A stretch of 64,000 nucleotides of DNA from NCBI RefSeq assembly GCF_016925535.1, contig NZ_CP070496.1, positions 3,694,257-3,758,256 on the forward strand, given 5' to 3'. Shown here in pieces: positions 2,850 to 16,831 of this stretch (positions within the stretch are counted from its first letter, which is position 1; each line of letters begins with the position of its first letter). The DNA is from Natronoglycomyces albus. GTDB taxonomy: Bacteria; Actinomycetota; Actinomycetes; Mycobacteriales; Micromonosporaceae. Below the pieces are notes generated by a model. The model saw only the letters and a program-made list of their open reading frames with translations. It was not told where the DNA came from and ran no database searches. The translations under genes and the position numbers were made by a program.

Positions 2850-2995
2850 CGTTTTGCAACGTAAGCCGTGCGTCCTGTGTGGTCACCGGCAGAACGCATG
2901 GCCCGGATGCGGACTCTGGGTGCGCTCATGACGCACCGCCAAGCAGGGTATTGGCCAAGTTCTGCGACACCTGATTGAAAATCGCATCCTTCCGC

Positions 2996-3280
2996 TCAGC
3001 AGAGCACACCAGAAACGATGTCACAGGTAATGTCCCCCAAGCGACCACACGCCGGGGCAATCATGGCTACCGGGATGACGAGCGACTGACCTTGTAGATT
3101 CAGCGCCAGAGCCGAGCCACGTTCGGGATGGGGCGAGACCATATAACGTCCCGACCCGAAGACGAACTCGACTACCTGGCCACCGGTGGCCTTGACCCGA
3201 TCGGAAGCGGTCGAGGACGTCGGCTGCGACACCGTTGAGTGGATGGGATCAGATGCCGTGAGATCGGTCGAATTACTCAT
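2996..3280 (-). CDS. hypothetical small protein (Ser/Thr-rich N-terminus, Cys-containing C-terminus)
   Basis: A 94-aa ORF downstream of 3557..3877 on the same strand. A third ORF 3277..3594 overlaps both. The coding status of all three is uncertain. Confidence 0.2.
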   Translation of the reverse strand: MSNSTDLTASDPIHSTVSQPTSSTASDRVKATGGQVVEFVFGSGRYMVSPHPERGSALALNLQGQSLVIPVAMIAPACGRLGDITCDIVSGVLC

Positions 3281-3556
3281 CGCACACCGCCCGCCAGCAG
3301 GGCTTCTACCCGCATATGCGGGTAGAACAAATCATAAGTTTGCACTTTATGGTGCGTGTTTTTGGGTGCGGGGCAGCGTATGGTGGTTCGTAGCATTACG
3401 AACTCCGTTTCTTGACGCTGAGAGGGTGGTCCGCTAAAGCAAGTTTTAGCGACGAAGTCCTTCGAACCACCCGATTCCATATGAACTTGTGCGCCCACCT
3501 GGACAAGGTGGGCTTTTCTCTGCGCCCTGAACGACCGGCCCGCAAAGCGGGAACCC

Positions 3557-3877
3557 TCAAACAGAAGCACCCCAGGTGATGCCGTAATCCACACCGATCA
3601 CATCGAATATTTCGGAACTATCTATGACTAAATTCCCAAAGTCAACGACCACGGCCATATCGAGCCGGGCGTGCCGCCAAAAATGACTAGAACCACGCCA
3701 GGGCATGAGATAGGCGTCACATTTTGACGGCGCATCCACTCGCCTTCGGGACATGGCACATGCCTTGTAGCACTCAATCCATAGCTCGGCGACATCACCC
3801 TCCCCATCTTGACCAAACCAATGCCAGAGGGTTGCCGCGCTCTCGAAATCGTTCCACTTCGGCGACCATGAGTCCAT
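3557..3877 (-). CDS. hypothetical small Trp-rich protein, first gene divergent from the AT-rich region
   Basis: The ATG is at 3877, directly flanking the AT-rich 3.88-4.2 kb intergenic region. It encodes 106 aa with many Trp/Cys residues. No known family was recognised. Confidence 0.3.
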   Translation of the reverse strand: MDSWSPKWNDFESAATLWHWFGQDGEGDVAELWIECYKACAMSRRRVDAPSKCDAYLMPWRGSSHFWRHARLDMAVVVDFGNLVIDSSEIFDVIGVDYGITWGASV

Positions 3878-4028
3878 AAGGGACGTAGATCGACTCCGCT
3901 AGCTAGCGTTATATCGAGAGTTAAGACGAATATCTACACTATTTCGAGCATGAACCAATTACTTGACGCTTCTAGCATCAATCAAAATCACGCATTAAAT
4001 AAATCGAAGTAATGGTCAACATCACTTC

Positions 4029-4052
4029 CGATCATAGGATCATTGGATGATC
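4029..4052. promoter_or_regulatory. perfect 7-bp inverted repeat CGATCAT-N10-ATGATCG in the AT-rich intergenic region (candidate operator)
   Basis: Read directly: cgatcataggatcattggatgatcg. It contains nested ATCAT repeats and lies about 20 bp upstream of a sigma70-like -35 element. Confidence 0.35.
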
Positions 4053-4070
4053 GTATTAATAAAAAGCAAA

Positions 4071-4099
4071 TTGACGACAATTCAGCTTCGTGTTATCTT
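4071..4099 (+). promoter_or_regulatory. candidate sigma70-like promoter (TTGACG-17 nt-TATCTT) driving the plus-strand gene string
   Basis: TTGACG lies at 4071-4076, followed by a 17-nt spacer and TATCTT at 4094-4099. The surrounding region is locally AT-rich. Confidence 0.35.
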
Positions 4100-4198
4100 C
4101 TGATCGGCAATGTGCGACTCACTGGTAATCACTGTGGATAGACAGTGTCCTGGGTTCTAGTGACGCATAAACCCCCTAGGAATAATAAGGAGAAAATC

Positions 4199-4279
4199 AT
4201 GCAGAACTCCAATGATGTCCTTCGCCAACTCGAGTCCGCTTCCGTGATGCGCGGATGCCAGGACAAGGAAAAGAAGTAA
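4199..4279 (+). CDS. 26-codon mini-ORF (MQNSNDVLRQLESASVMRGCQDKEKK), a candidate precursor or leader peptide
   Basis: The ATG is preceded by AAGGAGA at a 7-nt spacing. It ends with TAA and is followed by a 10-bp-stem hairpin. It is too short to appear in the ORF track. Confidence 0.4.
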   Translation: MQNSNDVLRQLESASVMRGCQDKEKK

Positions 4280-4291
4280 TCCTTTAACACA

Positions 4292-4324
4292 GCGGCGGCA
4301 ACGCTAATCCCGGTTTGCCGCCGC
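4292..4324 (+). terminator. stem-loop GCGGCGGCAA-N13-TTGCCGCCGC between the mini-ORF and the next gene (candidate attenuator or partial terminator)
   Basis: A perfect 10-bp inverted repeat was read directly. No U-tract follows, so read-through into the 4368 gene is likely. Confidence 0.4.
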
Positions 4325-4367
4325 TCCACCCCTCTTATAAGACCGAGCCGACTCGGAGAGCACGAGA

Positions 4368-5483
4368 ATGACCCCCCTGGATAATGTTGCGTTCGACGAA
4401 CATTTGGCTTCTCGACGAATTGCAGCTCGTGATGAATTGCTGCATCTCGCCCAGTCGATGAGTCAGCGCAATTCCCCTCAGCACTGGGATGCAGTGAAAG
4501 ACATTCCTAAGAACGCATTTCTGGAGCCCCGGCTTTTCACGCAATTCTCGCAACCCACGTTCGACCTGACTACGCTGCAACAACTTCTGTTGTCGCAATT
4601 CCAGGAAAGGACCGTACTCATAGCCGTCAAAACCGACTCTCAGGGAGCAATCTCCATTCCTGGCCTCGGTACGTGTGACACGGGCACTCCTGCGACAACT
4701 GGCACAGCCACATACCTCACTAGCGGCAACCAGCTGAGCGTTCAGCTCCACGGACAGGCAGCACAGACCTTCAAGTTGAAAGCGGCGGTCCACGTTCCGG
4801 GGACTGAAATCGAGCTGGTTCGCTACCTCGACCCGGCAGTCTCGGCCTTTTTGCGCAGCCACTCGGTGGACTTCGAGAAGACGCAATTGGTCTTTCCGAC
4901 AGCTGAACATCGGGAACAGATCGCGCGCGCACTCACTCTTATAGAACGCGCCAGCCCCGCATTTCACACCATGCTGCATGAGTCGATTCGCTCTCTCTGC
5001 CTCTACCATCACCCGTCCGACGCATCATTTGCAGCGCTCGGAATACACGGGATGCTCTTCTTCAACGTTCCGACGACGACAACGGTCGGCTACTTCATTG
5101 ACGAATTGGCACATCAGGGCGGCCATGTCCTCTTTAGTGAGGCGACGCTTCACCGCCAAGACTTCTTTACCGTCGACCCCGACACCCCTATGTCCGAAGT
5201 CATCGGGGACGACGATGCCAGATCCGCTTATGACACATTTCATGGACTTTACACCGAATTTACGGTTTCTCAGATACTCAACGCCATATCAAACCTCGGA
5301 GTGGCAAAGGCGGATGAAGCAACCGGTATTCGGCACCATTTCGACATAGTCATGGAACACAGCTCGCGCGATATCGCGCTAGTCGAATCGTGCGCGGAAA
5401 AGCTCTTCACTTCACTGGGGCACCGCGTCTTCGCACAGTTCAAGGACAGCTACGACCGCATTCAATCCCCCGTCACGCAGTAA
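4368..5483 (+). CDS. hypothetical 371-aa protein with His-rich motifs (ELAHQGGH, HTMLHE) and possible metal-dependent enzymatic function
   Basis: The ATG is preceded by GGAGAG. There is no exact match to a family I can name from sequence. It resembles HExxH-type peptide-modifying proteins only loosely. Confidence 0.5.
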   Translation: MTPLDNVAFDEHLASRRIAARDELLHLAQSMSQRNSPQHWDAVKDIPKNAFLEPRLFTQFSQPTFDLTTLQQLLLSQFQERTVLIAVKTDSQGAISIPGLGTCDTGTPATTGTATYLTSGNQLSVQLHGQAAQTFKLKAAVHVPGTEIELVRYLDPAVSAFLRSHSVDFEKTQLVFPTAEHREQIARALTLIERASPAFHTMLHESIRSLCLYHHPSDASFAALGIHGMLFFNVPTTTTVGYFIDELAHQGGHVLFSEATLHRQDFFTVDPDTPMSEVIGDDDARSAYDTFHGLYTEFTVSQILNAISNLGVAKADEATGIRHHFDIVMEHSSRDIALVESCAEKLFTSLGHRVFAQFKDSYDRIQSPVTQ

Positions 5484-5501
5484 CAGATTGAGCCCCATGT
5501 C

Positions 5502-6635
5502 ATGAAAACTACTGTCGAGATCCTCAAAGAAATGGTGGCGATTCCCAGCGTCAACCCCCTGCTCGCGTTGGAGGGTGAACCCGACGAAAGCCACCTGGCC
5601 AACTACATTGTGTCCACTCTGTCCGCTCACGGAATCAAAGTGTGGAAACAGCCGGTGAGCGAAGGCCGAGCGAACGTCATCGCCCACGTGGAGAGAGCAG
5701 GCAACGCCGACGACACGCTCGTCCTGCTCTCGGGACACATAGACACCTACCCCGCTGGCAGCCCCCACGCCGACTTCACCCCCATTGTGGAAGGCACCAC
5801 CGTTTACGGACGAGGAAGCGCCGATGCGAAGGGCCCTCTCGCCGCGATGGTCAGCGCGCTGTTCACCGCTTCGCAAGCTCGGTCGCGGCGTGAGGTGTAC
5901 CTAGCGGCGACCATCGACGAAGAGTGTTTGATGAGTGGCGTCAGCGAACTAGCGGCCCTGGGAATTCGGCCCGACATCGCCATCACGGGCGAGCCGACCA
6001 GCCTTGAGCCGGTCGGCATTCAAAAGGGCATAGTCCGCGGTCACATGCGGCTGTCCCATCCGAGCGCACACGCTGCGTACCCGGCACAGAGCAGCGTGTT
6101 CCTGTCCACAGCCGCCCTAATCGGGGCCGTTGCCGAACTCAACGAGCACCTGGCTTCGCGTACCCGACATCCCCTATTGGGGCCAGCGACCGTCTCCATC
6201 ACGACCTTGTCCGGCAACGGCGGCATGAACCTCGTGGGCGACGAAGTGGTCGTCCAATTCGACGCCCGTTTTCTCCCCGGCTCCACAGGCGAGGAGTTCG
6301 CAGCACATATCGCACAGTTCGTGGCAGAGCGGCTCAACGCAGCGACGACATTCACCATGGACACCCCTTCGTTCATCTCCCCGGCCAACGAGACCGATAA
6401 GGCGAACGCGGCCGTCCACGATTTCTTGGCGACCATCGGCTCAGTGGCCGGGCCCCGCGAGCTAGGGCACTTCTCCTACGGAAGCGAAGCGGGCATCCTC
6501 GCCACGTTCTCCAAGGCCAGCCTCGTTTTCGGGCCAGGGGACGCCAAGTACTCCCATGGCCCCACCGAGTGCATCGACACCAACGAACTCGAAACGGCAG
6601 CCGACATACTTCGTGCTTTCGTGGTGCGGTCATGA
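5502..6635 (+). CDS. M20 family metallopeptidase/deacylase (ArgE/DapE/CPG2-like)
   Basis: The N-terminus MKTTVEILKEMVAIPSVNP and the motifs LSGHIDTYP and GRGSADAKG are hallmarks of the M20 family. Confidence 0.85.
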   Translation: MKTTVEILKEMVAIPSVNPLLALEGEPDESHLANYIVSTLSAHGIKVWKQPVSEGRANVIAHVERAGNADDTLVLLSGHIDTYPAGSPHADFTPIVEGTTVYGRGSADAKGPLAAMVSALFTASQARSRREVYLAATIDEECLMSGVSELAALGIRPDIAITGEPTSLEPVGIQKGIVRGHMRLSHPSAHAAYPAQSSVFLSTAALIGAVAELNEHLASRTRHPLLGPATVSITTLSGNGGMNLVGDEVVVQFDARFLPGSTGEEFAAHIAQFVAERLNAATTFTMDTPSFISPANETDKANAAVHDFLATIGSVAGPRELGHFSYGSEAGILATFSKASLVFGPGDAKYSHGPTECIDTNELETAADILRAFVVRS

Positions 6636-6739
6636 ACACGCCCCGACAAGCAAGCCGGTCACCGGCAGTCCGCAGTCGACGTATCCAGCTCGGCGACAGC
6701 TCAGCCGTCGCCGGAAACCACAGGAAATAGGAAGAAAGC

Positions 6740-7489
6740 ATGTCTGTGCACACCGAACGATCGTCATCACCGAGCCGTGACAAGCTCTGCCTCGCCCTCG
6801 ACCTCACCGACCGGGCGGCCCTGCTCGACATCGTGGACGAACTGAAGGACCTCGTCGGCTGGTTCAAGATCAACTCGGCGTTCACTCTGTTCGGTCCCGA
6901 GTTGGTGCGCGAGCTCCTGGCTCGCGACGTCCGAGTGTTCCTGGATCTGAAACTGCACGACATCCCCAACACCCTCGCCGGCTATGGCACGGCCGTCACC
7001 GAACTGGGCGCCCATCTGGTCACTGTCCACACTTCCGGTGGTGTCGACATGATGCGTTCCCTCGTCACCTCCGCCGACGAGGCGGCGGCCCAGCTGAACA
7101 AACCCCGGCCCACCTTCGTCGGGGTGACAATCCTGACCAGCACCGATCAAACCGGGTTGAACCAAGAGCTGAACGTGCCGGGCACCGTCGAAGAGGAAGT
7201 CGCCCGCCGGGCTGGGCTCGCGAAGGAAGCGGGCCTTGACGGAATCGTGTGCGCTCCGGTCGAGCTGGCCACGGCACGGAAGGTCCTTCCCGACGCCGCC
7301 TTCCTGGTGACACCTGGCACCCGCTCACCTGGGGTCAGCGGCAACGACCACCGACGCGTCGGCACGCACGCCAATGCCATCGCCGACGGCTCCTCGCTGC
7401 TGGTGATCGGCCGTCAAGTACTGCACTCGGAGGACCGCCGGACCACCGTGGCGCAGATCGTGGAAGAGATCGAGGAGGCCCGAGCGTGA
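6740..7489 (+). CDS. pyrF: orotidine-5'-phosphate decarboxylase, type 1 (Bacillus/E. coli-like)
   Basis: FLDLKLHDIPNT, VTPGTRSP and LVIGRQV match the type-1 OMPDC signature. The gene is 249 aa. It sits in a non-pyrimidine-operon context. Confidence 0.85.
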   Translation: MSVHTERSSSPSRDKLCLALDLTDRAALLDIVDELKDLVGWFKINSAFTLFGPELVRELLARDVRVFLDLKLHDIPNTLAGYGTAVTELGAHLVTVHTSGGVDMMRSLVTSADEAAAQLNKPRPTFVGVTILTSTDQTGLNQELNVPGTVEEEVARRAGLAKEAGLDGIVCAPVELATARKVLPDAAFLVTPGTRSPGVSGNDHRRVGTHANAIADGSSLLVIGRQVLHSEDRRTTVAQIVEEIEEARA

Positions 7490-8283
7490 GAGCCCTGCCG
7501 CCGAAATCAGTGATCGCTTGCGTCCATCTGCTGCCCACTCCGGGCTCCCCCCGTTTCGACGGCAATGTCGAACGCATCTACGCGACCGCTCTAGCCGAGA
7601 CCGATGTGTTCCTACGCCACGGCGTCGACGCCCTGATCGTGGAGAACTTCCGGGACCAGCCGTTCCTACCCAACAGCGTCGGGCCCGAAACCACCGCGAC
7701 CATCGCGGGCGTGGCGCGGGAGGTAGTGCGAGCATCCTCGGTGCCCGTTGGCGTTGCGGTGCTGCGCAACGACGCCGCGGCCGCCATGTCGATCGCGGTG
7801 GCCACTGGCGCGCAATTCATCCGCGTGAACGTGCACACCGGAGCCGTGCTCACTGAACAAGGCATTCTCACCGGGCAAGGTCACGACACCCTACGGCGGC
7901 GCGAACAGTTGAAGGGCACGGTCGACATCTGGGCTGACGCCCGGGTGAAGCACTCCGTGCCGTTCACTCATCACGACCTGGCCGCCGAGATCCGGGACTT
8001 GAACAAAAGCGCCGACGGCATCATCGTCTCCGGCGAACTGACCGGGGTAGAGGCCCTGCCTCAAGACCTGAAGGTCGCTCAAGAGAACAGCTCCGCCCCC
8101 GTATATGTCGGTAGCGGAGTCACGGCGGTGAACCTGGCCCAACAATTCGACTCTGCCGACGGATTCATTGTCGGCAGCGACTTCAAGGAAGACGGTGTCG
8201 CCGCCCGGCCCGTCGAGGAGGGCCGCGTCAAGACCTTCATGAACGAGGTTCGCAGACTCCGTGAAGCGTCTACACCGGCATGA
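7486..8283 (+). CDS. BtpA/SgcQ family TIM-barrel protein
   Basis: A GTG start overlaps the pyrF stop (GTGA). The sequence IACVHLLPTPGSPRFDG…IVENFRDQPF…GFIVGSDFKEDG is typical of the BtpA family. The track ORF 7249..8283 was trimmed to the overlap start. Confidence 0.8.
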   Translation: MRALPPKSVIACVHLLPTPGSPRFDGNVERIYATALAETDVFLRHGVDALIVENFRDQPFLPNSVGPETTATIAGVAREVVRASSVPVGVAVLRNDAAAAMSIAVATGAQFIRVNVHTGAVLTEQGILTGQGHDTLRRREQLKGTVDIWADARVKHSVPFTHHDLAAEIRDLNKSADGIIVSGELTGVEALPQDLKVAQENSSAPVYVGSGVTAVNLAQQFDSADGFIVGSDFKEDGVAARPVEEGRVKTFMNEVRRLREASTPA

Positions 8284-8333
8284 GTATCACCGACCACCAA
8301 GCACGCAGCACCAGCTCATCGAGGTAAGGCTAT

Positions 8334-9044
8334 ATGGACAGTAGCAACGAAACGCGGGTCGACATCGAATCCTTTCGGAAGCTCTTCGGCGAGCCCCGGC
8401 CGACGCAGGGACGGCTGATCTCGATCGTCGGGTTCGACGGGTCGGGAAAGACCACCCAGATAGAGCAAACTGCGTCGGCGCTGCGTCGGCAGGGCCACGA
8501 AGTAGTCGAGACGAAGCAGCCCACCGACTGGTACCGGCAGCTGTCGAAAGTCCAGTCCTTCCACGCCGAGGGCGGCTCCGTCGAAACCGCTCACATCCTC
8601 GCCTTGCTCGCTGCCGCCGACCGTCGGCAACATGTGCGTGAGGTCATCGAACCCGCGCTGGAACGCGGCGCGATCGTCCTGTGCGACCGATACGTGTACG
8701 CGACGTTCGGGGTGTTCATTCACCGAGGCGTCGACTCGGAATTCCTCGCGACCATCAACAGTGGGATTCCACGCCCCGACTACGCCTTCTACCTGGACAT
8801 GTCCAGTGCGGACCTTGTGCGAAGGCTGAAAGAACGGGACGGCGAGAACCTTCAACATGAAGAAAAGTCGGTCGACCGCATCGAATCCATCACGCGCACA
8901 TACAAAGAGCTGGCCTCAGAACTGATCAGTATCGACGGGTCCGCCCCACCCACAGATGTCACGGCCGCGATTCTGAGCCACCTCCAGATCGGCCCCCCGA
9001 CTACCGAGAACTCCACCGACCACGGGCTCTCGGCCAACGCTTAG
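8334..9044 (+). CDS. thymidylate-kinase-like P-loop kinase (dTMP kinase family)
   Basis: It has P-loop GFDGSGKTTQ, LLAAADRRQH and VLCDRYVYATFG, which correspond to the Tmk lid and DRY region. The gene is 236 aa. Confidence 0.75.
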   Translation: MDSSNETRVDIESFRKLFGEPRPTQGRLISIVGFDGSGKTTQIEQTASALRRQGHEVVETKQPTDWYRQLSKVQSFHAEGGSVETAHILALLAAADRRQHVREVIEPALERGAIVLCDRYVYATFGVFIHRGVDSEFLATINSGIPRPDYAFYLDMSSADLVRRLKERDGENLQHEEKSVDRIESITRTYKELASELISIDGSAPPTDVTAAILSHLQIGPPTTENSTDHGLSANA

Positions 9045-9277
9045 GAATTCACTCGCTGAATCCCTAAGCCCGCAGATGGAAAGCGCGTCCGCGGGCATCG
9101 AAAGAACCACGACAAGAAAGGTGATAACCATGCCAGGCAAAGGCCCTTCGATCACTCCGTCCATCGCAGGCATCTTCAAGCCGCGCCCCTAACAGGGCAC
9201 CTGGTCGCCGCCAAATCTGACAAGGGCACCGGACGTTGAGCGTCAGTGCCCGGCGGCACGAGGACAAACCCCTGCGC

Positions 9278-9311
9278 TTGGAGTGGGAAGAACGCTCTTT
9301 CCACTCCAAGC
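9278..9311 (+). other. near-perfect 15-bp-stem hairpin CTTGGAGTGGGAAGA-acgc-TCTTTCCACTCCAAG in the intergenic region
   Basis: Read directly. There is one G-U position. It lies between the Tmk-like gene and the next CDS and has no U-tract. Confidence 0.3.
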
Positions 9312-9443
9312 CACCACCACTACCCCTATACGGCCGCCCGTGCGAAGCCACCCACTTCAGTTGGCCGGACGTGCCGGCTCAGACCTCGCCCGCGAGACCA
9401 CCAGGGCTGGCAACCGCACAGGTGGGACACCTTTGAGGAACAC

Positions 9444-10259
9444 ATGACCGACGACTCCGCTCCATCAGCAGACATCGCCCACATGGACCTACCATCGTGG
9501 GTTCGCGAGAGCTACTCCAACGACGACGTCTACCTCTTCGACGAAGCCCCCTCCGTCATCTCCGTGTACGAAGACCCGTTCCTGCTGGAGAAGTTCACTT
9601 TCCTCGTCCACGTCCCCGCCGAAATCCTCCACAGCCAGGAACGACTGCGACGATTCCTCGGACGGGCCCGCGCGCACTTCGGAAGCGAGTTGCCGTTCCT
9701 GCTGCGCCTAGAGGCGGACCACAAAGCCCCGGCCGGTGACGGCGTCCGCTGTAACGAACGTTTCGTCGAAATGCCGACGGTATCCGTACGCGCCTCTGTC
9801 GACGGGCTACCCGCAGACGTTCACGTCGAACAACTCCACGCCGACAACACCAAGGACTTCGTCAACCTGCTGTTGCACGGGCTGGAGTTCTCCGCCTCGT
9901 CCAAAGGCGTCCCGTTTCGCACCGACGCGGTGGAAGCGAATCTGCGCAGCAACGTGATTCCCGCCTACGAGGCAGACCAGGCGCACGCGCTGCTCGCCAA
10001 GCGCGGCCACGAGGTCATCGGGTTCGTCTCCTGGGTCGACACCGGCGAGACCGTAGAACTGATCGACATCTGGGCGTATGAGCGCGACGAACTACGACGA
10101 CTCGTCTCCCCCCTGCTATACCTCGCCGTCGCCCACTCCGCGGCTGCGACCGTGCGGGGTTCGATAGTCGGCTCGGATGACAATGCGACCGCCGTCTTCC
10201 AACGGCTCCTCGCCCAAGGCTGGAGGCTACACGAATCGTATTGGCGGCTCGAACTATGA
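9444..10259 (+). CDS. hypothetical protein, possibly a GNAT-fold acyltransferase
   Basis: The start was set at MTDDSAPS (GAGGAA RBS). The C-terminus …VIGFVSW…RGSIVGSDDNATAVFQRLLAQGWRL loosely resembles GNAT motifs A/B. The assignment is weak. Confidence 0.45.
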   Translation: MTDDSAPSADIAHMDLPSWVRESYSNDDVYLFDEAPSVISVYEDPFLLEKFTFLVHVPAEILHSQERLRRFLGRARAHFGSELPFLLRLEADHKAPAGDGVRCNERFVEMPTVSVRASVDGLPADVHVEQLHADNTKDFVNLLLHGLEFSASSKGVPFRTDAVEANLRSNVIPAYEADQAHALLAKRGHEVIGFVSWVDTGETVELIDIWAYERDELRRLVSPLLYLAVAHSAAATVRGSIVGSDDNATAVFQRLLAQGWRLHESYWRLEL

Positions 10260-11410
10260 CCGAGAAGTCCACAGCCGCGTCCGGCGACGTGGGTGAACTG
10301 ATCGACGCCGTTCACCGCTGGTACGGAGAAGAACGTCACATCGCGCCGTTCCTGCGAAAGCTACGCAAACGCAGCCCCAAGGTCGTACCAACGTACTTGT
10401 CATGTCTGGAACTACAAGGCGAAACACTGGACAGCCTCACGAGGGCCGAAGTCGACGTGGTGCGGCAACGAGCCGACCACTATGCCGTGATCTGGGAGCA
10501 GCTGCGCCAACGATGGCCCGACATCATCGCCGTCAAAGGGCCGACCGCCAGCGCCGCCTACCCCGCCGGAGTGCAGCGCTACAGCGCAGACCTCGACGTG
10601 GTCGTTTCAGACCAGTTGACCGTCACCGACGTGGCCCGATACTTCCTTGACGCCGGGTGGCAACGCGAAAGCCTCATGTTGTGGCGTTCCGACGGCTGCG
10701 AACAGATGCGGGTCATTGTCGAAAAACCGTTCGTGGAGCCGATGCAGCAGCCCCTAAGAGTCGAGATCACCACATTGGAGTGGATCGGCGCAAGCTCGGC
10801 GACAAAACCTCAGACACGACTCGACGTGAAATCCGACATCGTGCGTACCCAGCTGGCCATCATCGCCGAACGGTATGAGCGAGCCTTCGACTTTCGGGAT
10901 GCGCTGGATTTCCTGTTGCTAGACCGACAACTGTCCGACGCCGGTCGCGCCGAACGGGAGGCGATGATCGCCGACCTTGGCGTCGAACCTCTCGCCGAGG
11001 AGCTGATTCGCCTGGTGTCCCAGATTGACAAGAGCTACGCTGACGCTTCGGCACGGCGGCAACTGGCCGGATTTGGGACACGGTTGTCCGCCAAACTCTC
11101 GTTCTGGCGCAAGGGTCTGCGAAACCCACGGGCCCGACTGGCCTTGGCCTCCCAGTTCGCGCTGATCGAAAACCAGTCGTCCCAGGCTTGGAATCGGGTA
11201 CTACAGGCAATGGTACGAGGCATATCCGGAGCCGATGCCCTGGACAAAGGGCTGCTGGTATGGGGCATCCCGGTCGTGCTGACCGCCGACAAACAAGACG
11301 TGGATTCACCACACATTCGGCATAGTCCTCTCGGGGCATGGTTTCTCACCGCCAGCTCGGTGATCGAAGCGAAGACGTTGGAAGAAGTCGGCGTCGAGAG
11401 CTTGGGCTAG
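10256..11410 (+). CDS. hypothetical protein, possibly an uncharacterised nucleotidyltransferase-like protein
   Basis: Its ATG overlaps the upstream stop (ATGA). The segment VKGPTASAAYPAGVQRYSADLDVVVSD resembles the GS…D.D motif of pol-beta-type NTases. The assignment is weak. Confidence 0.45.
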   Translation: MTEKSTAASGDVGELIDAVHRWYGEERHIAPFLRKLRKRSPKVVPTYLSCLELQGETLDSLTRAEVDVVRQRADHYAVIWEQLRQRWPDIIAVKGPTASAAYPAGVQRYSADLDVVVSDQLTVTDVARYFLDAGWQRESLMLWRSDGCEQMRVIVEKPFVEPMQQPLRVEITTLEWIGASSATKPQTRLDVKSDIVRTQLAIIAERYERAFDFRDALDFLLLDRQLSDAGRAEREAMIADLGVEPLAEELIRLVSQIDKSYADASARRQLAGFGTRLSAKLSFWRKGLRNPRARLALASQFALIENQSSQAWNRVLQAMVRGISGADALDKGLLVWGIPVVLTADKQDVDSPHIRHSPLGAWFLTASSVIEAKTLEEVGVESLG

Positions 11411-11506
11411 GCGGATGAGCCGAATGCGACCCCCTCGGCTTACCGACCGACCAGATGCCCCCACACATCGGCCTTCACAACCTCACAGACAGAAGCAAAG
11501 GACACT

Positions 11507-12475
11507 ATGAGCGACGCGACGGAACTTGCGATACGGGTAACCGACTTGACTCGCACATACCAAAGCCAGGATGGGGCGCCCGAACGAACAGCACTCGACC
11601 AGATCAGCATGGCCGTGCCCCACGGCGAAGTCCACGGGCTCCTCGGCCCCAACGGGGCCGGAAAGACGACACTGTGCAAGATCCTGTCCACGCTGCTAGT
11701 GCCGACATCAGGCAGCGCTACCGTCAGCGGGTTCGACGTGACACACGAGTACAAGCGAATACAGCCTCTGGTGGGAATCGTCTTTGGAGGCGAAAAGGGC
11801 CTCTACAACATGATGACTGCGGCCGACAACCTGCACTTCTGGGCCGGTCTGTACAACGTGAAGCGCTCCGTGGCCAAAGAACGCGTGCCGAGGCTGCTGG
11901 ACTTGGTCGGCCTCAGGGGCCGGGCGCATGACCGCGTCGACACGCTGTCGCGAGGAATGAGACAAAGGCTGCACCTGGCACGCGGCCTCATAGGTGATCC
12001 GCGCATCCTGATTCTGGACGAGCCGACCGTGGGAATGGACCCGATTGCGGCGCAGGAGTTCCGCAACCTGATTCGAGACTTGCGCGAAGATAACATCACT
12101 TTCCTGCTCACCACCCACAACATGGCCGAGGCCGAATCGCTGTGTGACCGTGTCTCGTTCATCGACAGCGGAAAGCTGTTGCACTGCGAAAGCCCCCACG
12201 CGTTGCGGCGGTCGATGTCGAGTCGGCACCGCATCGTCGCCAAGAGCGTGCCCGGTGACATCGCCGCGCAATTGGAACAACGGGTCGACGTCGAGCAAGT
12301 GCGCCTCACCGACTCAAGCGAAGCGCACATCGATCTCACCGACAAGCGGGCCGCCCAAGAAGTGTTGTTCTTTCTCACCGACATAGGCATAGACGAAGTT
12401 TCGCTTGCCCCGGCGACGCTGGAGGAAGTGTACATACAGCTCATCGGCGAACGCGGTATGGAGTTGGGATCGTGA
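11507..12475 (+). CDS. ABC transporter ATP-binding protein (ABC-2/DrrA-like exporter subunit)
   Basis: It has Walker A GPNGAGKTT, signature LSRGMRQRL and Walker B ILILDEPT. Confidence 0.9.
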   Translation: MSDATELAIRVTDLTRTYQSQDGAPERTALDQISMAVPHGEVHGLLGPNGAGKTTLCKILSTLLVPTSGSATVSGFDVTHEYKRIQPLVGIVFGGEKGLYNMMTAADNLHFWAGLYNVKRSVAKERVPRLLDLVGLRGRAHDRVDTLSRGMRQRLHLARGLIGDPRILILDEPTVGMDPIAAQEFRNLIRDLREDNITFLLTTHNMAEAESLCDRVSFIDSGKLLHCESPHALRRSMSSRHRIVAKSVPGDIAAQLEQRVDVEQVRLTDSSEAHIDLTDKRAAQEVLFFLTDIGIDEVSLAPATLEEVYIQLIGERGMELGS

Positions 12476-13251
12476 CACTGTCGGCCCGGCCAATCACCGA
12501 GGCGATGAGGTTCCAGTCTCGGATCATCCGCGGTAACCCCGGAACCTTGCTGCCGCTCATCACCACCCCGTTTCTCACCGCGACACTGCTGGCGATCTTC
12601 GACCACATCGGCCGCGAGGACATTGCGGCCTATGCCGTCATCGCTCCGGCGATCATGGCGTTGCTGGGCGTCGCCATCGGCGAATCCGGCGAAATTATCT
12701 TCCGCGACCGCAACACCGGCGTCCTCGAAGCCCAAATGGGAGCGCCCAGCTCGTTCGCGTCGGTCTTGGCGGGCAGAATCGGCACCGTCTTGGCGTTCGG
12801 GCTCATCGGGCTCGTGCAGGCATGGCTGGTCGCGGCTCTCGGCTTCGGCGTCATCGTCGCCGTCGAGCACCTGGTTCCCTTCGTGCTGGCAACAGTACTG
12901 TGTCTGGTGGGCATGGTGGCCATGGCGATATTGATGGCGGCGACCTTTGTGGTCGGACGTTCGGTGCGAGCCTTCCAAAACGCCATCTCCTACCCACTGT
13001 TCCTCTTCGGTGGTGTCCTCGTGCCGCTGGAACTGCTTCCAACCGTGGTGGAGTGGATCGGCCGCCTGTTCTTCCTGTCCTGGGTGACCGACCTGCTGCG
13101 CGACAGTGTGCTCGCGGCACCCGTCGAGAACCTTTGGCCCCGGCTCGGCATCGCCACGCTGTTGGTGGGTCTCACGCTGGCAGCCGCCATCGCCGTTCTC
13201 TCACGGCTGGTTCAACGCCTCCGTACAACCGGGAATGTGAGTCTCGTATGA
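12472..13251 (+). CDS. ABC-2 type transporter permease
   Basis: It has six hydrophobic helices. Its start overlaps the ATPase stop (translational coupling). Confidence 0.75.
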   Translation: MTLSARPITEAMRFQSRIIRGNPGTLLPLITTPFLTATLLAIFDHIGREDIAAYAVIAPAIMALLGVAIGESGEIIFRDRNTGVLEAQMGAPSSFASVLAGRIGTVLAFGLIGLVQAWLVAALGFGVIVAVEHLVPFVLATVLCLVGMVAMAILMAATFVVGRSVRAFQNAISYPLFLFGGVLVPLELLPTVVEWIGRLFFLSWVTDLLRDSVLAAPVENLWPRLGIATLLVGLTLAAAIAVLSRLVQRLRTTGNVSLV

Positions 13252-14039
13252 GTGTTGTGACGCAATCGCGGCAAGCTATCAATCTGGGCATGGCCTCCAT
13301 GCGCATGACCTACACCGTGAAGTCATTCTTCGGTGGATACATGTTGCGAACACTGTGCCAGGTGGTGTTCTTTTCCTCGATTGGAGCACTGGCCGCAGGC
13401 GGAGAAGTGACTTCGTTTCTTCTAATCGGCATGTCCGTGTATCTGGCAACGACTCTGCCGATGATGGCCAGCGCCTCTACGACATGGGATCGGAACGCGG
13501 GGACTTTGTCGCTGTTGGTGGCGTCCCCGGCGGCACTGGCGGTCGTGTTCCTCTTTCGAAGTTGGTTTTTCATCCTGACCGGTTCGGTGTCGTCTATTTT
13601 GGCTTTGGCGATTCTGATTCCGGCTTTCGGCATCAGCGTCAGTATCTCGCAGGCGGCCTTGATATTCGCGCTGGTCATCGTAGCGGCACTCACCACTTAT
13701 GCTCTGGGTGTCGCCTGCGGCGGCATGGCATTGCGGTTTCCCCATCTACGCAACGTCTTTTCCACGTTCGTCATGACGGTGTCCATGATGATCGGCGGGT
13801 TCGTCGTGCCGCTTGACTACTGGCCGGCGGGCTTCCAGTGGGTAGCGCAGATATTCCCAGGCGTGCACGCCTTGAGTGGGATTCGGGAAGTCATGGGAGG
13901 CGGAGACTTGACGGTGGTGGGCTTTCACACGGTTACAGCCTTCGCTGTGGCTTTCCTGTGGTTGGTTGTCGCGGCATTGTCATTTTGGTGGCTACGAGTT
14001 CACGGTCGCAAGGTCGGCAGCATCGATTTCGAGGATTAA
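13248..14039 (+). CDS. ABC-2 type transporter permease (second membrane subunit)
   Basis: The ATG at 13248 overlaps the upstream stop. It is a polytopic membrane protein. The track ORF 12822..14039 was trimmed. Confidence 0.7.
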   Translation: MSVVTQSRQAINLGMASMRMTYTVKSFFGGYMLRTLCQVVFFSSIGALAAGGEVTSFLLIGMSVYLATTLPMMASASTTWDRNAGTLSLLVASPAALAVVFLFRSWFFILTGSVSSILALAILIPAFGISVSISQAALIFALVIVAALTTYALGVACGGMALRFPHLRNVFSTFVMTVSMMIGGFVVPLDYWPAGFQWVAQIFPGVHALSGIREVMGGGDLTVVGFHTVTAFAVAFLWLVVAALSFWWLRVHGRKVGSIDFED

Positions 14040-14140
14040 CGACGGGGCCGTAAGCCAGTGCGGCCCGCAATGTAGCCCCACGACGTGGGACCAGTTCACT
14101 CTGGGTCCGGCCCCACGTCTTGGGTGGAGATTGTTCGCGG

Positions 14141-16831
14141 CTAACTGGCGTTGTCGATGTCGGCGCTCCTGGCGTTGGGGCCGGTTGCCCCGGCGCTGTC
14201 CACGCCAGTGCCGTTGCCGTTGCCAGTGTCCGTCGCCTGGGGCCTTCCCTTGGAGACGGCCAGCGTGTCGCCGCGTTCGGCGACTCCCACCGAGACGGTG
14301 TCACCATCGGTGATGTCGCCGGCCAACAACTGCCGAGCCAGCTGGTCACCGATCGAGTTCTGCACCAGCCGACGCAACGGCCGCGCCCCATAGACGGGGT
14401 CAAAGCCGCGCTCGGCCAACCAAGTGCGGGCGTCATCGTCCACATCGAGGACCAGACGACGGTTAGCCAGCCGTGTGCCCAAGACGTCCAGCTGCACGTC
14501 CACAATGCCCTTCAAGTTCTCTTCGCTCAGCGAGGAGAACACGACAATGTCGTCCAAGCGGTTCAAGAATTCCGGCTTGAAATGCCCCTGCACCGCCGAC
14601 ATGACGGCACTTTGTCGCTGCTCGGCATCCAGCGTCGAATCCGCGATCGAGGTCGAACCCAGGTTCGAGGTCATGATGAGGATCGTGTTGCGGAAGTCGA
14701 CGGTGCGGCCCTGCCCGTCGGTGAGGCGGCCGTCGTCAAGCACCTGCAACAGCGTGTCGAACACGCCCGAATGAGCTTTCTCGACCTCGTCGAACAACAC
14801 CACCGAATACGGGCGGCGGCGCACCGCCTCGGTGAGCTGACCGCCGGACTCATAGCCGACGTAGCCAGGCGGCGCACCGATGAGCCGCGCCACGGAATGG
14901 CGCTCGGTGTATTCGCCCATGTCGATGCGCACCATCGCGTGCGCGTCATCGAACAGGAACTCCGCCAAAGCCTTGGCCAGCTCAGTCTTACCAACCCCGG
15001 TGGGGCCGCAGAAGAGGAAGGAGCCAGTGGGCCGGTTCGGGTCGTTAATGCCTGCCCGGGCGCGGCGCACCGCGTCGGAGACCGCGTGCACGGCGGGATC
15101 TTGGCCGATGACGCGTTGACTGAGCACTTCGTCCATGCGCAGCAGCTTCGCGGTCTCGGACTCGATGAGTCGCCCGGCGGGGATGCCCGTCCAGGCGGAG
15201 ATGACCTCGGCGATCTCGTCTGGTTCGATCTCCTCCTTGAGCATGGGTGAGGCGCTTTGCTCCTTCGAGAGGGCGGCTTCGGCCTGCTGTAGTTGGGACT
15301 CCAGCTCAGGGATCTTGCCGTAGCGCAACTGGGCGACCTCTTCGAGGTTGTATTCGCGTTCGGCGCGTTCGGCGGCGGCGCGGACGTCCTCAAGTTGTTC
15401 CTTCAGTTGCGAGACCGAACCGATGCGGTCTTTCTCTTGGCTCCACTGTTGCGACAGGGCCGAGAGCCGTTCGCGGCTGTCAGCCAGTTCCCGGCGCAAG
15501 GTGGCGAGGCGTTCCCGCGAACCTGGGTCGGTTTCTTTGGCTAGCGCCATTTCTTCGATTTCGAGGCGGCGCACAGTGCGTTCGACGGCATCGATTTCCT
15601 CTGGCCGCGAGTCGATCTCGATGCGGAGGCGCGAAGCGGCCTCGTCAATGAGGTCAATGGCTTTATCGGGTAGGAAGCGGTCGGTGATGTACCGGTCGGA
15701 TAGTTGGGCGGCCGCCACCAGGGCCGAGTCGGTGATGCGCACCCCGTGATGGACTTCGTAGCGTTCTTTAAGCCCGCGCAGGATGGCCACGGTGTCCTCA
15801 ACGGAAGGCTCACCGACCAGGACGGGCTGGAAGCGGCGTTCCAGGGCCGGGTCCTTTTCGATGTTTTGGCGGTATTCGTCAAGGGTGGTGGCACCGACCA
15901 TGTGTAGTTCGCCCCGGGCGAGCATGGGTTTGAGCATGTTGCCCGCGTCCATGGAGCCTTCGGTCTTACCCGCGCCGACCATGGTGTGCAGCTCGTCGAG
16001 GAAGGTGATGATCTGCCCGTCGGCGGATTTGATCTCTTCGAGGACGGACTTGAGTCGTTCCTCGAATTGGCCTCGGTACTGGGCTCCGGCCAGCATGCTG
16101 GCCAGGTCGAGGGAGACCACGGAGCGGTCGCGTAGGGAATCGGGGACGTCTCCGGCGACGATGCGTTGAGCCAAGCCTTCGACAATCGCGGTCTTACCGA
16201 CGCCCGGTTCTCCGATGAGCACCGGGTTGTTCTTGGTGCGGCGAGAAAGCACTTGGATGACGCGGCGAATCTCCGTGTCACGGCCAATGACCGGGTCGAC
16301 TTTGTCGTTGCGAGCGGCTTTGGTCAAGTCGATGGAGTATTTTTCTAGTGCCTTATAGCTGCCTTCGGGGTCGGCGCTGGTGACTTTGCGGTCACCGCCG
16401 CGAATGGTGGGGAAGGCGGCAACGAGCTTTTCGACGGTCGCGCCGAGTTGTTGCATGGCTTCGCCGACGTCGCCGATCTGAGCCAGCCCGGCGAGCAGGT
16501 GCTCAGTGGAGACATATTCGTCTCCGTTGTCGCTAGCGACGCCGTCGGCGGCGTTGATCGCGGCGAGGGATTCGCGGGCCATGGATGGTTCGGCTACGGA
16601 AGACCCTGACGCGGCTGGAAGTTGGTCGAGGTTTTGCTCGGCTTGAGTTGCCAGGGAGCCTGGGGTCACGCCGACTACCTGGAGTAGGCCCGGCGCGGTG
16701 GACCCGTCCACGGTAAGGAGAGCGTGGAGAAGATGCCAGGGCTCGACGGTGGCGTGGCCGCTGCTTTGGGCCTCGCGGGCTGCCTGCGAGATCACTTCAC
16801 GGCTCTTGGTAGTTAGGCGGTTGACGTCCAA
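14141..16831 (-). CDS. clpB: ATP-dependent chaperone ClpB
   Basis: It has an N-terminal Clp domain, two AAA modules ([16 protein letters not shown]) and a long middle coiled-coil. The gene is 896 aa. Confidence 0.95.

Follow-up and report, generated by a model that had tools for sequence, protein, structure and literature searches.

The characterised members of the αKG-HExxH family of peptide oxygenases (ChlH/ChlBH, BpmH, PflC/PosC and the nitrilobacillin enzyme; TIGR04267 / IPR026337) all modify RiPP precursors, hydroxylating Asp, His, Gln, Asn or Pro and, for some members, cutting the backbone oxidatively after Gln (PMC12636437, PMC13060819). In the microcin C system a very short gene for a ribosomal peptide precedes a hairpin and the genes of the enzymes, with an exporter nearby, and the PQQ, mycofactocin and pearlin (3-thiaglutamate, ammosamide) pathways pair a small, strongly conserved peptide with a fixed set of enzymes. 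Among BtpA-family enzymes, we found a natural-product role described only for SbzO of altemicidin biosynthesis, which acts on a ribose-phosphate or dinucleotide intermediate and helps strip the ADP-ribosyl part from an NAD-derived compound (PMC9516700, PMC13518217).

Features of all these systems meet in six genes at 4199-9044 on the + strand of the window, the 64,000-nt stretch of Natronoglycomyces albus DNA that was analysed (GCF_016925535.1, NZ_CP070496.1 forward strand, positions 3,694,257-3,758,256). The six encode a 26-aa peptide, the oxygenase-fold protein g1, the M20 hydrolase g2, the OMP-decarboxylase paralogue g3, the BtpA-family protein g4 and the kinase g5 (Table 1). We read them as a RiPP-type biosynthetic cassette that brings together a ribosomal peptide and chemistry of the pyrimidine-nucleotide type, a reading to which we assign a probability of about 0.6. 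The cassette is rare and recurs nearly unchanged at 17 or more sites in two phyla, Actinomycetota and Betaproteobacteria: counting the N. albus window, 17 distinct loci carry the complete set, with varying gene order. One further locus (L009) lacks only g3, with no copy within 10 kb, indicating that the decarboxylase is not strictly required. No description of the cassette was found in Pfam, NCBIfam, PADLOC or the literature searched, in keeping with the preliminary description, which had proposed a biosynthetic locus matching no known pathway; the cassette unites a ribosomal peptide and enzymes of nucleotide type. Relatives show its genes neither scattered nor placed within pyr or arg operons but syntenic across the 17 loci. 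The cassette probably makes an undescribed peptide-derived natural product.

Table 1. Features of the N. albus locus (positions are those of the window).
Feature	Position	Strand	Properties
AT-rich upstream region	3880..4198	+	one sigma-70-like site, weak 10-nt inverted repeat
Precursor-type mini-ORF, 26 aa, MQNSNDVLRQLESASVMRGCQDKEKK	4199..4279	+	AAGGAG RBS 7 nt upstream; peptide family in 20 loci
Stem-loop, 11-bp perfect stem	4291..4325	+	between peptide gene and g1
g1, divergent αKG-HExxH-fold oxygenase, 371 aa	4368..5483	+	motif H249-Q-G-G-H253
g2, M20 metallo-hydrolase, ArgE/DapE/[LysW]-lysine hydrolase type	5502..6635	+	HMM matches; 42-54% identity in all loci
g3, type-1 OMP-decarboxylase paralogue	6740..7489	+	NF001273, 210.8 bits vs cut-off 193; 54-68% identical in other loci
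g4, BtpA/SgcQ family TIM barrel	7486..8283	+	TIGR00259, 236.7 vs 153.4; 55-67% identical in other loci
g5, dTMP-kinase-like P-loop kinase, altered NMP pocket	8334..9044	+	TIGR00041, 113 bits vs cut-off 83
Second small ORF, putative, MPGKGPSITPSIAGIFKPRP	9131..9193	+	RBS-like AAGAAAGG upstream; in 400-bp gap before g6
g6, lineage-specific, 271 aa	9444..10259	+	from ATG at 9444; no family match
g7, lineage-specific, weak nucleotidyltransferase match	10256..11410	+	NTP_transf_5, 26 bits, below 31.2 gathering score
g8-g10, DrrAB-type ABC-2 exporter	11507..14039	+	ATPase 11507-12475; permeases 12472-13251 and 13248-14039

The peptide belongs to a family that adjoins g1 homologues in 20 loci and shares the motif D-[VIL]-x-x-Q-[LI]-x-x-[GSA]-[AGS]-[VIA]-[KM]-x-G-C-Q, in shorter form D-x-x-x-Q-L-x-x-G-A-V-[KM]-x-G-C-Q. 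Among 16 distinct DNA versions of the gene, differences at the three codon positions number 439, 344 and 861, respectively, and 528 codon pairs differ synonymously. The gene is a stand-alone one on the opposite strand in five loci (L005, L006, L007, L012 and L024), in one of which (L005) the closest genes called on its far side have the opposite orientation, and it is duplicated in L008 and L011. A strong hairpin lies directly 3' of the peptide stop codon in seven of seven loci tested (z from -3.5 to -7.6), its sequence not being conserved; the 88-nt spacer that contains it in N. albus folds at -31.3 kcal/mol (z = -3.5). Conservation in 20 loci, the dominance of third-position changes, the stand-alone and duplicated copies and the recurrent hairpin together indicate, at the level of sequence, that the mini-ORF is a real, selected gene for a conserved substrate-type peptide rather than a side detail. 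The mini-ORF and hairpin had been anticipated in the preliminary description, the former one base from where it lies.

The arrangement of short ORF, hairpin and then nucleotide-type genes also resembles attenuation, and the IclR regulators and carbamoylase-type amidase found in many of the loci are typical of catabolic clusters. The small ORF would then encode a leader peptide that acts in regulation together with an attenuator hairpin, at the head of an ordinary pyrimidine salvage or catabolic operon. We consider this extremely improbable because the peptide gene can be inverted or duplicated relative to the enzymes, its amino-acid sequence and not merely its presence is conserved across phyla, and its constant neighbor has a peptide-modifying oxygenase fold. 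Furthermore, the hairpin at 4291-4325 lacks a U-tract and was not called in a terminator scan.

That constant neighbor, g1, had been listed as a His-motif protein of no known kind; the motif is real, and the protein is an αKG-HExxH-fold oxygenase. Both motif histidines and the further invariant His and Arg of the family are retained, and, as in the family, the gene adjoins a small precursor gene. Unlike in the family, the motif is HQxxH rather than HExxH, the Glu being replaced by an invariant Gln, and g1 is accompanied by an M20 hydrolase and three enzymes of nucleotide type rather than by radical-SAM or MNIO enzymes. The profile score of 16.3 bits against a family cut-off of 40 is so marginal that mining based on IPR026337 would probably miss g1. 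It is highly probable that the cassette is of RiPP type with g1 acting on the peptide. In six Streptomyces loci g1 and the M20 hydrolase form one ORF, and in another case (P0006) g1 is fused to the kinase. These fusions, together with the recurrence of the full set in 17 loci of varying gene order, show that the five core enzymes are functionally linked. The M20 hydrolase is thus a core enzyme and not an immunity add-on, contrary to the self-protection role suggested for it previously.

The N. albus genes do give the appearance of a longer unit. As reported at the outset, all run in one direction with short gaps or overlaps; four-nucleotide start/stop overlaps join g3 to g4 (GTGA, the GTG start of g4 overlapping the g3 stop codon), g6 to g7 (ATGA), g8 to g9, and g9 to g10 (ATGA). 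They share one upstream region whose 300 bp at 3901-4200 were correctly singled out as the most AT-rich of the window (GC 0.387 vs 0.616 overall). The promoter proposed there corresponds to a sigma-70-like site, TTGACG-17-TATCTT, at 4071-4099; promoter-like sites in the region are nonetheless not in excess (2 found vs 1.2 expected in shuffled sequence). The supposed palindromic operator amounts to an inverted repeat of 10 nt at 4034-4056 that contains one mismatch and is not beyond chance. Such tight co-directional packing would suit the preliminary model of a single microcin-C-like pathway of eleven genes, in which immunity comes from the peptidase, from g6 as an acyltransferase and from the ABC pump. 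This proposal is very unlikely, since g5 and g6 lie 400 bp apart with a small ORF in between, g6 and g7 were not found in any other fetched locus, the M20 enzyme belongs to the core, and g6 gives no sign of GNAT character. Nor is there a ThiF/MccB adenylyltransferase match in Pfam among the ten proteins, and the peptide lacks a C-terminal Asn. Immunity genes of the MccE or MccF type were likewise not identified, and conservation extends over the whole length of the peptide. The likeness to microcin C therefore goes no further than "peptide plus nucleotide", nucleotide chemistry being plausible in the cassette. Fewer than eleven genes make up the functional unit: conservation is limited to the mini-ORF and g1-g5, and g6, g7 and the ABC-2 exporter are lineage-specific additions to this core.

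Profile matches bore out the assignments of g2 to g5 and of the DrrA-like ATPase with its two ABC-2 permeases. Against the de novo pyrimidine enzymes (PyrF, PyrD/PyrK, PyrE and Tmk), g3 scores as PyrF and g5 as Tmk. The motifs K, D-x-K-x-x-D, LTS, PG-R and GR are kept in g3, which may simply be a working OMP decarboxylase, with the Gln of DQRR changed to His. In g5, which belongs to a kinase subfamily of 162 members, the P-loop and DRY motif are kept, whereas the base-stacking Phe (LLFSADR to LLAAADRR) and the S..AYQ motif that bind thymine are lost, making dTMP an unlikely substrate. Unlike the pyrimidine enzymes, the cassette genes lie outside a pyr operon and are always linked to the peptide gene and its oxygenase. 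The relationship of g4 to SbzO, a member of the same Pfam family, likewise has limits: the SbzO partners (an SIS isomerase, a mutarotase and the PLP enzyme SbzP) are missing from the cassette, and the exact reaction of SbzO is itself not settled.

Extra, divergent copies of housekeeping enzymes inside a cluster can also be self-resistance duplicates. Actinomycetota normally use a type-2 PyrF, and g3 is of type 1. On such a reading the locus would be a RiPP antibiotic cluster whose targets lie in pyrimidine metabolism, and g3 and g5 would have no biosynthetic role. We regard this as even less probable than the eleven-gene proposal. P0006 joins the kinase to g1 and P0099 joins it to a glyoxalase domain, the nucleotide pocket of the kinase is remodelled and not merely desensitised, and two target duplicates kept together with BtpA across loci at 54-70% identity fit a pathway better than immunity.

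A more substantial challenge comes from the PQQ, mycofactocin and pearlin pathways, in which a hydrolase may excise a small product, as it might here. By that logic the peptide would be a disposable scaffold for a small molecule or cofactor and a nucleotide would never be involved: g1 would oxidise Cys-Gln, the kinase would phosphorylate the new hydroxyl, the OMP-decarboxylase-like and BtpA barrels would act on a phosphorylated non-nucleotide intermediate, and the M20 enzyme would excise the product. Conservation between the two phyla covers nearly the entire peptide, a pattern seen in PqqA or MftA but not in antibiotic cores; the altered kinase pocket disfavors dTMP; and the g1 fusions to kinase and M20 suggest that all three enzymes handle the peptide. 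An M20 peptidase is also encoded in the ammosamide pearlin cluster (PMC12424672), and a PqqD-type protein occurs in some cassette loci. The core differs from these pathways in lacking a radical-SAM enzyme (PqqE or MftC) and a PEARL/LanB-like ligase, and the conserved G-C-Q is internal rather than C-terminal. On the other hand, g3 retains nearly all OMP-binding and catalytic motifs and exceeds the equivalog cut-off for PyrF, pyrimidine or nucleotide types keep recurring among the accessory genes (PyrD-1B, PyrK-like, PRTase-like, NTases), and most annotated loci have an exporter beside them, which is unusual for a cofactor. On balance we consider a nucleotide-free cofactor pathway unlikely, and the chemical participation of a nucleotide-like moiety somewhat better than an even bet.

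For the peptide-plus-nucleotide cassette we infer the following chemistry and product. The 26-aa peptide would be a ribosomal substrate or scaffold, its N-terminal amphipathic D-V-L-R-Q-L serving for recognition, the invariant G-C-Q as reaction site, and the variable tail being removed; the hairpin 3' of its gene could ensure a high ratio of peptide to enzyme transcript. As a presumed Fe(II)/α-ketoglutarate oxygenase, g1 would oxidise G-C-Q or an adjacent position of the peptide, through β-hydroxylation, oxidative loss of the tail (after Gln, as with PflC and PosC) or both, and the M20 hydrolase would trim or release the modified C-terminal part. Together, g3, g4 and g5 would make or process a pyrimidine-nucleotide-like (ribose-phosphate) moiety that might be joined to, or derived from, the modified peptide. 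No enzyme in the conserved core would obviously join a nucleotide to a peptide, and we suggest only tentatively that the final product is a peptide-nucleotide conjugate. Export would depend on a locus-specific transporter, the ABC-2 pump in N. albus, where g6 and g7, perhaps with the small ORF at 9131, might form a strain-specific tailoring module. For a RiPP of antibiotic type the degree of peptide conservation is unusual, and a cofactor or scaffold role fits at least as well.

The lineage-specific proteins are isolated. No Pfam or NCBIfam match was found for g6, only two remote relatives were found among 1.84 billion representatives, and its single-sequence model (pLDDT 38.6) is unusable, leaving the suggested GNAT-like identity without a signal. 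The nucleotidyltransferase character proposed for g7 has a single Pfam match behind it, which falls below the gathering score, and among 5.8 billion proteins g7 matched only itself. Nucleotidyltransferase-fold genes are accessory in the other loci as well, being missing in L001, L004, L005 and L012.

In about half of the loci the core is joined by a class-1B dihydroorotate dehydrogenase, a PyrK-like subunit, a phosphoribosyltransferase-like protein (accessory module A includes these three types) and a carbamoylase-type amidase. Elsewhere the additions are an NTP_transf_2 protein together with a PqqD peptide-binding protein, an AurF-like oxygenase and an asparagine synthetase; the nitrilobacillin cluster also has an asparagine-synthetase-like enzyme (PMC13060819). 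Since accessory modules A and B are absent from the N. albus window, conclusions drawn from them transfer to it only indirectly. An ABC-2, MFS or MATE exporter adjoins most loci with annotated flanks: an ATPase similar to that of N. albus lies 3' of the cassette in L006, L009, L016 and L017, and MFS or MATE exporters are found in other loci. Finally, distant g1 homologues in Gammaproteobacteria adjoin a C39-type peptidase ABC exporter and a double-glycine precursor whose core begins ..SGCHTG, so that a G-C-[QH] motif is common to both groups of peptides.

Between positions 4199 and 14039, every gene lies on the forward strand, with short gaps and several stop and start codons that share 4 nt. 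The preliminary description, whose observation of the genes was largely correct and most of whose labels were confirmed by HMM searches, treated this run as part of a single eleven-gene unit. However, only the mini-ORF and g1 to g5 are conserved, and the two lineage-specific genes g6 and g7 are absent from all other loci compared. Using tblastn, g1, the M20 hydrolase, the OMP-decarboxylase paralogue, the BtpA protein and the kinase were found together in 17 distinct loci including the window (counting L002/L003 once and L004/L013 once), distributed over Streptomyces, Nonomuraea, Nocardia, Dactylosporangium, Trebonia, uncultured Actinomycetota, Paraburkholderia and a Variovorax-like contig. The conserved unit is thus six genes, the mini-ORF plus g1 to g5. 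Its gene order differs between loci, and identity to the window proteins is 54-70% for the three nucleotide-type enzymes and only 33-41% for g1. One locus (L009) lacks the decarboxylase alone, another (L010) is partial where a contig end cuts through it, and a low-GC gammaproteobacterial MAG (L018) carries g1, BtpA and M20 with a MATE-like pump. The cassette enzymes are further tied together by gene fusions: g1 and M20 form one ORF of 751-842 aa in six Streptomyces loci, the Micromonospora aurantiaca protein P0006 is a g1-kinase fusion, and P0099 is a 342-aa fusion of the kinase with a glyoxalase domain. The M20 peptidase, previously proposed to serve self-protection, therefore belongs to the core.

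Coordinates of features in the window and in related loci
Locus	Feature	Position	Strand	Assignment
Window	Left flank	1-3877
Window	10-nt inverted repeat	4034-4056
Window	Promoter-like site	4071-4099
Window	Mini-ORF	4199-4279	+	26-aa peptide
Window	g1	4368-5483	+	Predicted αKG-HExxH-fold oxygenase
Window	g2	5502-6635	+	M20 hydrolase, ArgE/DapE type (HMM search)
Window	g3	6740-7489	+	Type-1 OMP decarboxylase (NF001273 match)
Window	g4	7486-8283	+	BtpA/SgcQ protein (HMM)
Window	g5	8334-9044	+	dTMP-kinase-like (TIGR00041 match)
Window	g5-g6 gap	9045-9443		400 bp
Window	Second small ORF	9131-9193	+	20 aa, MPGKGPSITPSIAGIFKPRP; RBS-like AAGAAAGG upstream
Window	g6, g7	9444-11410	+	Lineage-specific genes
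Window	g8-g10	11507-14039	+	DrrAB-like ABC-2 exporter (HMM)
Window	clpB	14141-16831	-	Right-hand boundary of cluster
Window	Short Rfam tRNA match	57910-57967	+	58 nt, 38 bits
L001 (Nonomuraea helvata)	SAICAR-synthetase-like gene, short-chain dehydrogenase, HisG homologue	18624-20937
L019 (gammaproteobacterial MAG)	Distant g1-like locus	9625-13321
L020 (gammaproteobacterial MAG)	Distant g1-like locus	5757-9451
L021 (gammaproteobacterial MAG)	Distant g1-like locus	4854-8315
L022 (Solirubrobacteraceae MAG)	81-aa ORF	4692-4937
L023 (Caldimonas brevitalea)	Kinase-subfamily member and neighbours	10001-20643
L025 (Variovorax-like)	Glyoxalase/VOC-family gene	9597-9965

The mini-ORF encodes MQNSNDVLRQLESASVMRGCQDKEKK behind a good ribosome-binding site, and a peptide of this type is found beside the g1 homologue in 20 loci, for example MKISADIIRQLSTGAVKKGCQNGNGK in Nonomuraea helvata, MNVNSDVLRQLSTGAVKRGCQNCK in Streptomyces, MNADILTQIRTGAVMRGCQNS in Nocardia and MSDLLAQLKSGAVMHGCQSQGGGDSSDRPE in Paraburkholderia sediminicola. 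The loci share the motif D-[VIL]-x-x-Q-[LI]-x-x-[GSA]-[AGS]-[VIA]-[KM]-x-G-C-Q and vary in the tail behind it; the conserved G-C-Q is internal and the C-terminal residue is K, R, S or E; no model in Pfam or NCBIfam covers the peptide. Across 16 distinct DNA versions of a 16-codon block, differences at codon positions 1, 2 and 3 numbered 439, 344 and 861, respectively, and 528 codon-pair differences were synonymous, indicating that the mini-ORF is a translated, selected sequence. With coding-type substitutions, a ribosome-binding site and duplicates, this is the short conserved precursor gene adjoining a modifying enzyme that is expected of a RiPP cluster. When a degenerate DNA pattern for G-A-V-K-R-G-C-Q was searched in metagenomes, 3 of the 120 returned stretches contained the real peptide and nearly all matches were due to chance; one of the three (L045) carries the entire cassette.

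Several gene arrangements bear on whether the peptide acts merely in cis. Its gene is on the opposite strand in L005, L006, L007, L012 and L024 (in L005 the nearest called genes past it point the other way) and is present in two copies each in L008 and L011, which argues that it is not a cis-acting leader. Leader-peptide attenuation was rejected on account of the stand-alone, opposite-strand and duplicated peptide genes, and a salvage operon preceded by a leader peptide is the least probable of the alternatives we considered. A strong hairpin follows the peptide stop codon in all seven loci in which the peptide lies directly ahead of g1 (z -3.5 to -7.6), its sequence not being conserved among them. 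Hairpins between precursor and enzyme genes are common in RiPP operons, including mccA-mccB.

The enzyme adjoining the peptide, g1, is 100% identical to an N. albus protein, has no Pfam domain and belongs to a rare family of 19 proteins among 5.8 billion. The sole clue from its sequence was a match to TIGR04267 ('aKG-HExxH-type peptide beta-hydroxylase') that covers profile positions 2-174 of 177 and falls below the cut-off (E 0.0075; 16.3 bits, cut-off 40). A sequence search against solved structures returned nothing significant, and matches came from fold comparison alone. From an alignment of these 19 sequences, AlphaFold2 produced a confident model (pLDDT 91.4, pTM 0.90) that gave good Foldseek matches to only two solved structures, SjiH (22ob, E 3e-10) and the HExxH domain of ChlBHExxH (8s5f, ChlH; E about 1e-8), placing the modeled fold with the αKG-HExxH peptide oxygenases (TIGR04267 / IPR026337). 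The motif H249-Q-G-G-H253, invariant in the 19 homologues, keeps both His residues and has Gln in place of Glu; H215, H292, R263, R285, Y288 and E297 are also invariant. Judging from the model, g1 is an αKG-HExxH-fold oxygenase with, predictedly, the function of that family, from which it differs in the motif Glu and in scoring below the HMM cut-off. Mining based on HExxH would probably overlook an oxygenase of this type. Characterised members of the family all act on RiPP precursors, β-hydroxylating Asp, His, Gln, Asn or Pro, and two of them, PflC and PosC, also make an oxidative backbone cut behind the final Gln of the substrate (PMC12636437, PMC13060819).

Distant relatives of g1 point to where it might act. 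In three gammaproteobacterial MAG loci (L019-L021), a g1-like oxygenase of 393-415 aa stands beside a second large gene and a 733-aa ABC exporter with an N-terminus (..MDQMDCGPTCLRM..) that resembles a C39 peptidase domain, and in L019 and L020 a 67-aa double-glycine precursor (..ALEKITGG/VLSGCHTG.., the slash following the double glycine) lies next to the g1-like gene. Such surroundings are classical for bacteriocin-type genes, and they seem to mark a RiPP family of its own, of which we found no description. Because the double-glycine precursor and the cassette peptides have a G-C-[QH] motif in common, Cys-Gln is by analogy the likely site of g1 action. That the cassette is of RiPP type, with g1 acting on the peptide, we consider highly probable. 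Just upstream of a partial g1-like match in a Solirubrobacteraceae MAG, the 81-aa ORF of L022 contains ..NGGAFMCCHTH.. and may be a further precursor variant with a Cys-His site.

The likeness to microcin C suggested in the preliminary description does not hold at two points. Microcin C depends on an MccB-type ThiF adenylyltransferase, which is absent here (no ThiF/E1-like Pfam match in the ten proteins), and its precursor ends in a nucleotidylated Asn, whereas the cassette peptide is without a C-terminal Asn. The cassette does not belong to the microcin C systems, and the eleven-gene model built on that logic is unlikely. Its broader expectation of an undescribed biosynthetic locus combining peptide and nucleotide was right in spirit. 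Neither Pfam, NCBIfam and PADLOC nor the literature searched, which does not cover all subscription journals, describes this gene combination or the peptide; the peptide motif appeared in none of the papers searched, and the BtpA/SgcQ literature contained nothing describing the cassette. As an anti-phage defence system the locus was rejected, the PADLOC matches being only generic P-loop/ABC.

What sets the cassette apart are its three nucleotide-type enzymes, families for which we found no description in a RiPP pathway (OMP decarboxylase, BtpA and thymidylate kinase). The decarboxylase paralogue g3 scores above the type-1 PyrF cut-off (NF001273, 210.8 bits, cut-off 193) and retains the catalytic Lys, D-x-K-x-x-D, FLDLKLHDIPNT, LTS, PG-R and GR of OMP decarboxylase. 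At the D-Q-R-R loop, His stands in place of the Gln that in OMP decarboxylase contacts phosphate and pyrimidine, both in g3 (N-D-H-R-R) and in the L001 protein (D-H-K-R). Similarly, g5 scores above the Tmk cut-off (TIGR00041, 113 bits, cut-off 83.25) and contains the P-loop GFDGSGKTTQ and CDRY. In Tmk structures, a stacking Phe and S..AYQ bind dTMP (thymine, and sugar plus base, respectively); aligned to 5x8k, g5 has LLAAADRR for LLFSADR, with Ala for the stacking Phe, and ATFGVF for SSLAYQ, changes that make dTMP an unlikely substrate. Genes of the g3 and g5 type could be read as resistance duplicates; given the gene fusions within the cassette, we consider it slightly less probable even than the microcin-C-like model. 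The third enzyme, g4, is a BtpA/SgcQ member (PF03437, 243.8 bits, cut-off 30; TIGR00259, 236.7, cut-off 153.4) that falls below the photosystem-I BtpA equivalog cut-off (216 vs 400) and matched no solved structure by sequence. Among BtpA members, we found a role in natural-product biosynthesis described for one, the altemicidin enzyme SbzO, which with two other enzymes strips the ADP-ribosyl part off an NAD-derived intermediate (PMC9516700, PMC13518217).

Pyrimidine-type functions also recur in an accessory set of genes, module A, present in L004, L005, L008, L011, L012, L014, L016 and L017 and partially in L002 and L015. It comprises a class-1B dihydroorotate dehydrogenase (NF005574, 341 bits vs 269), a PyrK-like electron-transfer subunit, a hydantoinase/carbamoylase-type M20 amidase, a 203-aa protein with weak phosphoribosyltransferase similarity, an MFS pump and an IclR regulator. 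Taken together, the features of g3 to g5, the SbzO precedent and module A make it likely that the cassette chemistry runs through a ribose-phosphate or pyrimidine-nucleotide-like intermediate, and we lean, by a small degree, towards nucleotide-type chemistry being truly involved. No obvious enzyme for joining a nucleotide to the peptide was found in the conserved core. The main rival is a route like those of PQQ, mycofactocin or pearlins to a small peptide-derived molecule, in which a phosphorylated intermediate other than a nucleotide would be the substrate of the barrels and the kinase. Such a route is favoured by how extremely conserved the peptide is and by the remodelled pocket of the kinase, whereas the near-canonical g3 site and module A speak against it. 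The cassette itself is neither a PQQ or mycofactocin cluster, as it has no radical-SAM enzyme, nor a pearlin cluster, as it has no PEARL ligase. We regard the rival route as rather doubtful, yet as far more plausible than the other alternatives.

In the mechanism we propose, the peptide would serve as substrate or scaffold. Its helical N-terminal part would be bound by g1, which would oxidise G-C-Q and possibly remove the variable tail. Conservation extends along most of the peptide, a cleavage site is not readable from the sequence, and an M20 hydrolase is present in all loci; this hydrolase would trim or free the modified part. The decarboxylase paralogue, BtpA and kinase would then build or process a moiety of nucleotide type that is either linked to the modified peptide or formed from it, and a locus-specific pump would export the product. 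Under this scheme, the cassette would specify a new ribosomal natural-product class in which an oxidised Cys-Gln is covalently linked to a pyrimidine-nucleotide-like unit, or itself becomes one, with g3 to g5 processing that unit, a reading to which we assign a probability of roughly 0.35; a peptide-nucleotide conjugate as end product is likewise a tentative proposal.

We rate the cassette as a pathway of RiPP type whose set of enzymes is new, and which could become a new class once its product is known. Its chemistry is only inferred; the family is conserved across phyla and compact. New pairings of enzyme and peptide are what drives RiPP discovery, and the cassette ties a sharply defined peptide family to a divergent oxygenase and to the three enzyme families of g3 to g5. 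If the nucleotide link is real, it would represent a second, independent route to peptide-nucleotide hybrids, apart from ThiF/MccB chemistry, would give the enzyme families of g3 to g5 their first assigned roles on a peptide-bound substrate, and would provide a testable function for BtpA, a widespread family of unknown biochemistry. Since conservation of the peptide reaches from Actinomycetota to Betaproteobacteria, the product could, instead of an antibiotic, be a cofactor or a signalling molecule. At only ~5 kb and apparently self-contained, the cassette is directly testable by heterologous expression.

Outside the core, gene content varies. An exporter lies beside most annotated loci and is of no conserved type: ABC ATPases similar to that of the window follow the cassette in L006, L009, L016 and L017, and elsewhere MFS or MATE pumps flank it. 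A second accessory set, module B, occurs in L002, L006, L008 and L011 and partially in L009 and L015, and consists of an NTP_transf_2 protein, a PqqD-type peptide-binding protein, an AurF-like di-iron oxygenase and a true asparagine synthetase with a glutaminase domain. The synthetases of L002, L006 and L008 have strong glutaminase domains, and that of L006 scores as true AsnB (TIGR01536, 322.9 vs 267) and under the lasso-cyclase cut-off. A lasso peptide cluster was rejected, as the window lacks an Asn-synthetase-like cyclase and a B-type protease and the synthetases of related loci resemble true AsnB. In the nitrilobacillin cluster, an αKG-HExxH enzyme co-occurs with Asn-synthetase-like enzymes that amidate or dehydrate the peptide C-terminus (PMC13060819). 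Both modules are absent from the window, where, speculatively, g7 may fill a comparable role: its single match, to the nucleotidyltransferase family NTP_transf_5, is weak and sub-threshold, and it has no homologue other than itself among 5.8 billion proteins. For g6, the GNAT-like label of the preliminary description found no support: no Pfam or NCBIfam family matched, a single-sequence model was uninformative, and neither of two remote homologues among 1.84 billion representatives had informative domains. The second small ORF, just ahead of g6, g7 and the ABC pump, could encode another precursor, one that serves a module of its own.

Members of the kinase subfamily of g5 number 162 at E < 1e-20. 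One of them, P0075, is encoded outside the window on the 3.94-Mb N. albus chromosome and is 59% identical to g5, which hints at a second cassette in this organism. In Caldimonas brevitalea, a member 60% identical to g5 occurs alone, without the cassette, among an ABC importer, two DUF1989 proteins, a urea-carboxylase-like protein and an amidase. The glyoxalase/VOC-family gene of L025 lies between a g1-like gene and the kinase, and downstream are an aminotransferase, an OYE-type reductase, a luciferase-like monooxygenase and an MFS pump. In Nonomuraea helvata, the trio listed for L001 lies ~5 kb downstream of the cassette, with a His_biosynth protein and a 2OG-Fe(II) oxygenase nearby; such a trio is the signature of coformycin/pentostatin-type biosynthesis.

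Finally, the 300 bp preceding the mini-ORF is the AT-richest stretch of the window (GC 0.387 vs 0.616). The promoter-like site within it did not exceed chance expectation, nor did the 10-nt inverted repeat previously described as a palindromic operator, and an Rfam scan of the cluster region found no RNA family. The left flank has a lower GC content, 0.58 overall and about 0.50-0.53 over its first 900 bp, and its ORFs gave zero Pfam matches, consistent with the cassette lying at the border of an acquired island. The short Rfam tRNA match near the far end of the window was not called by ARAGORN and could be a tRNA fragment, such as an old integration site.
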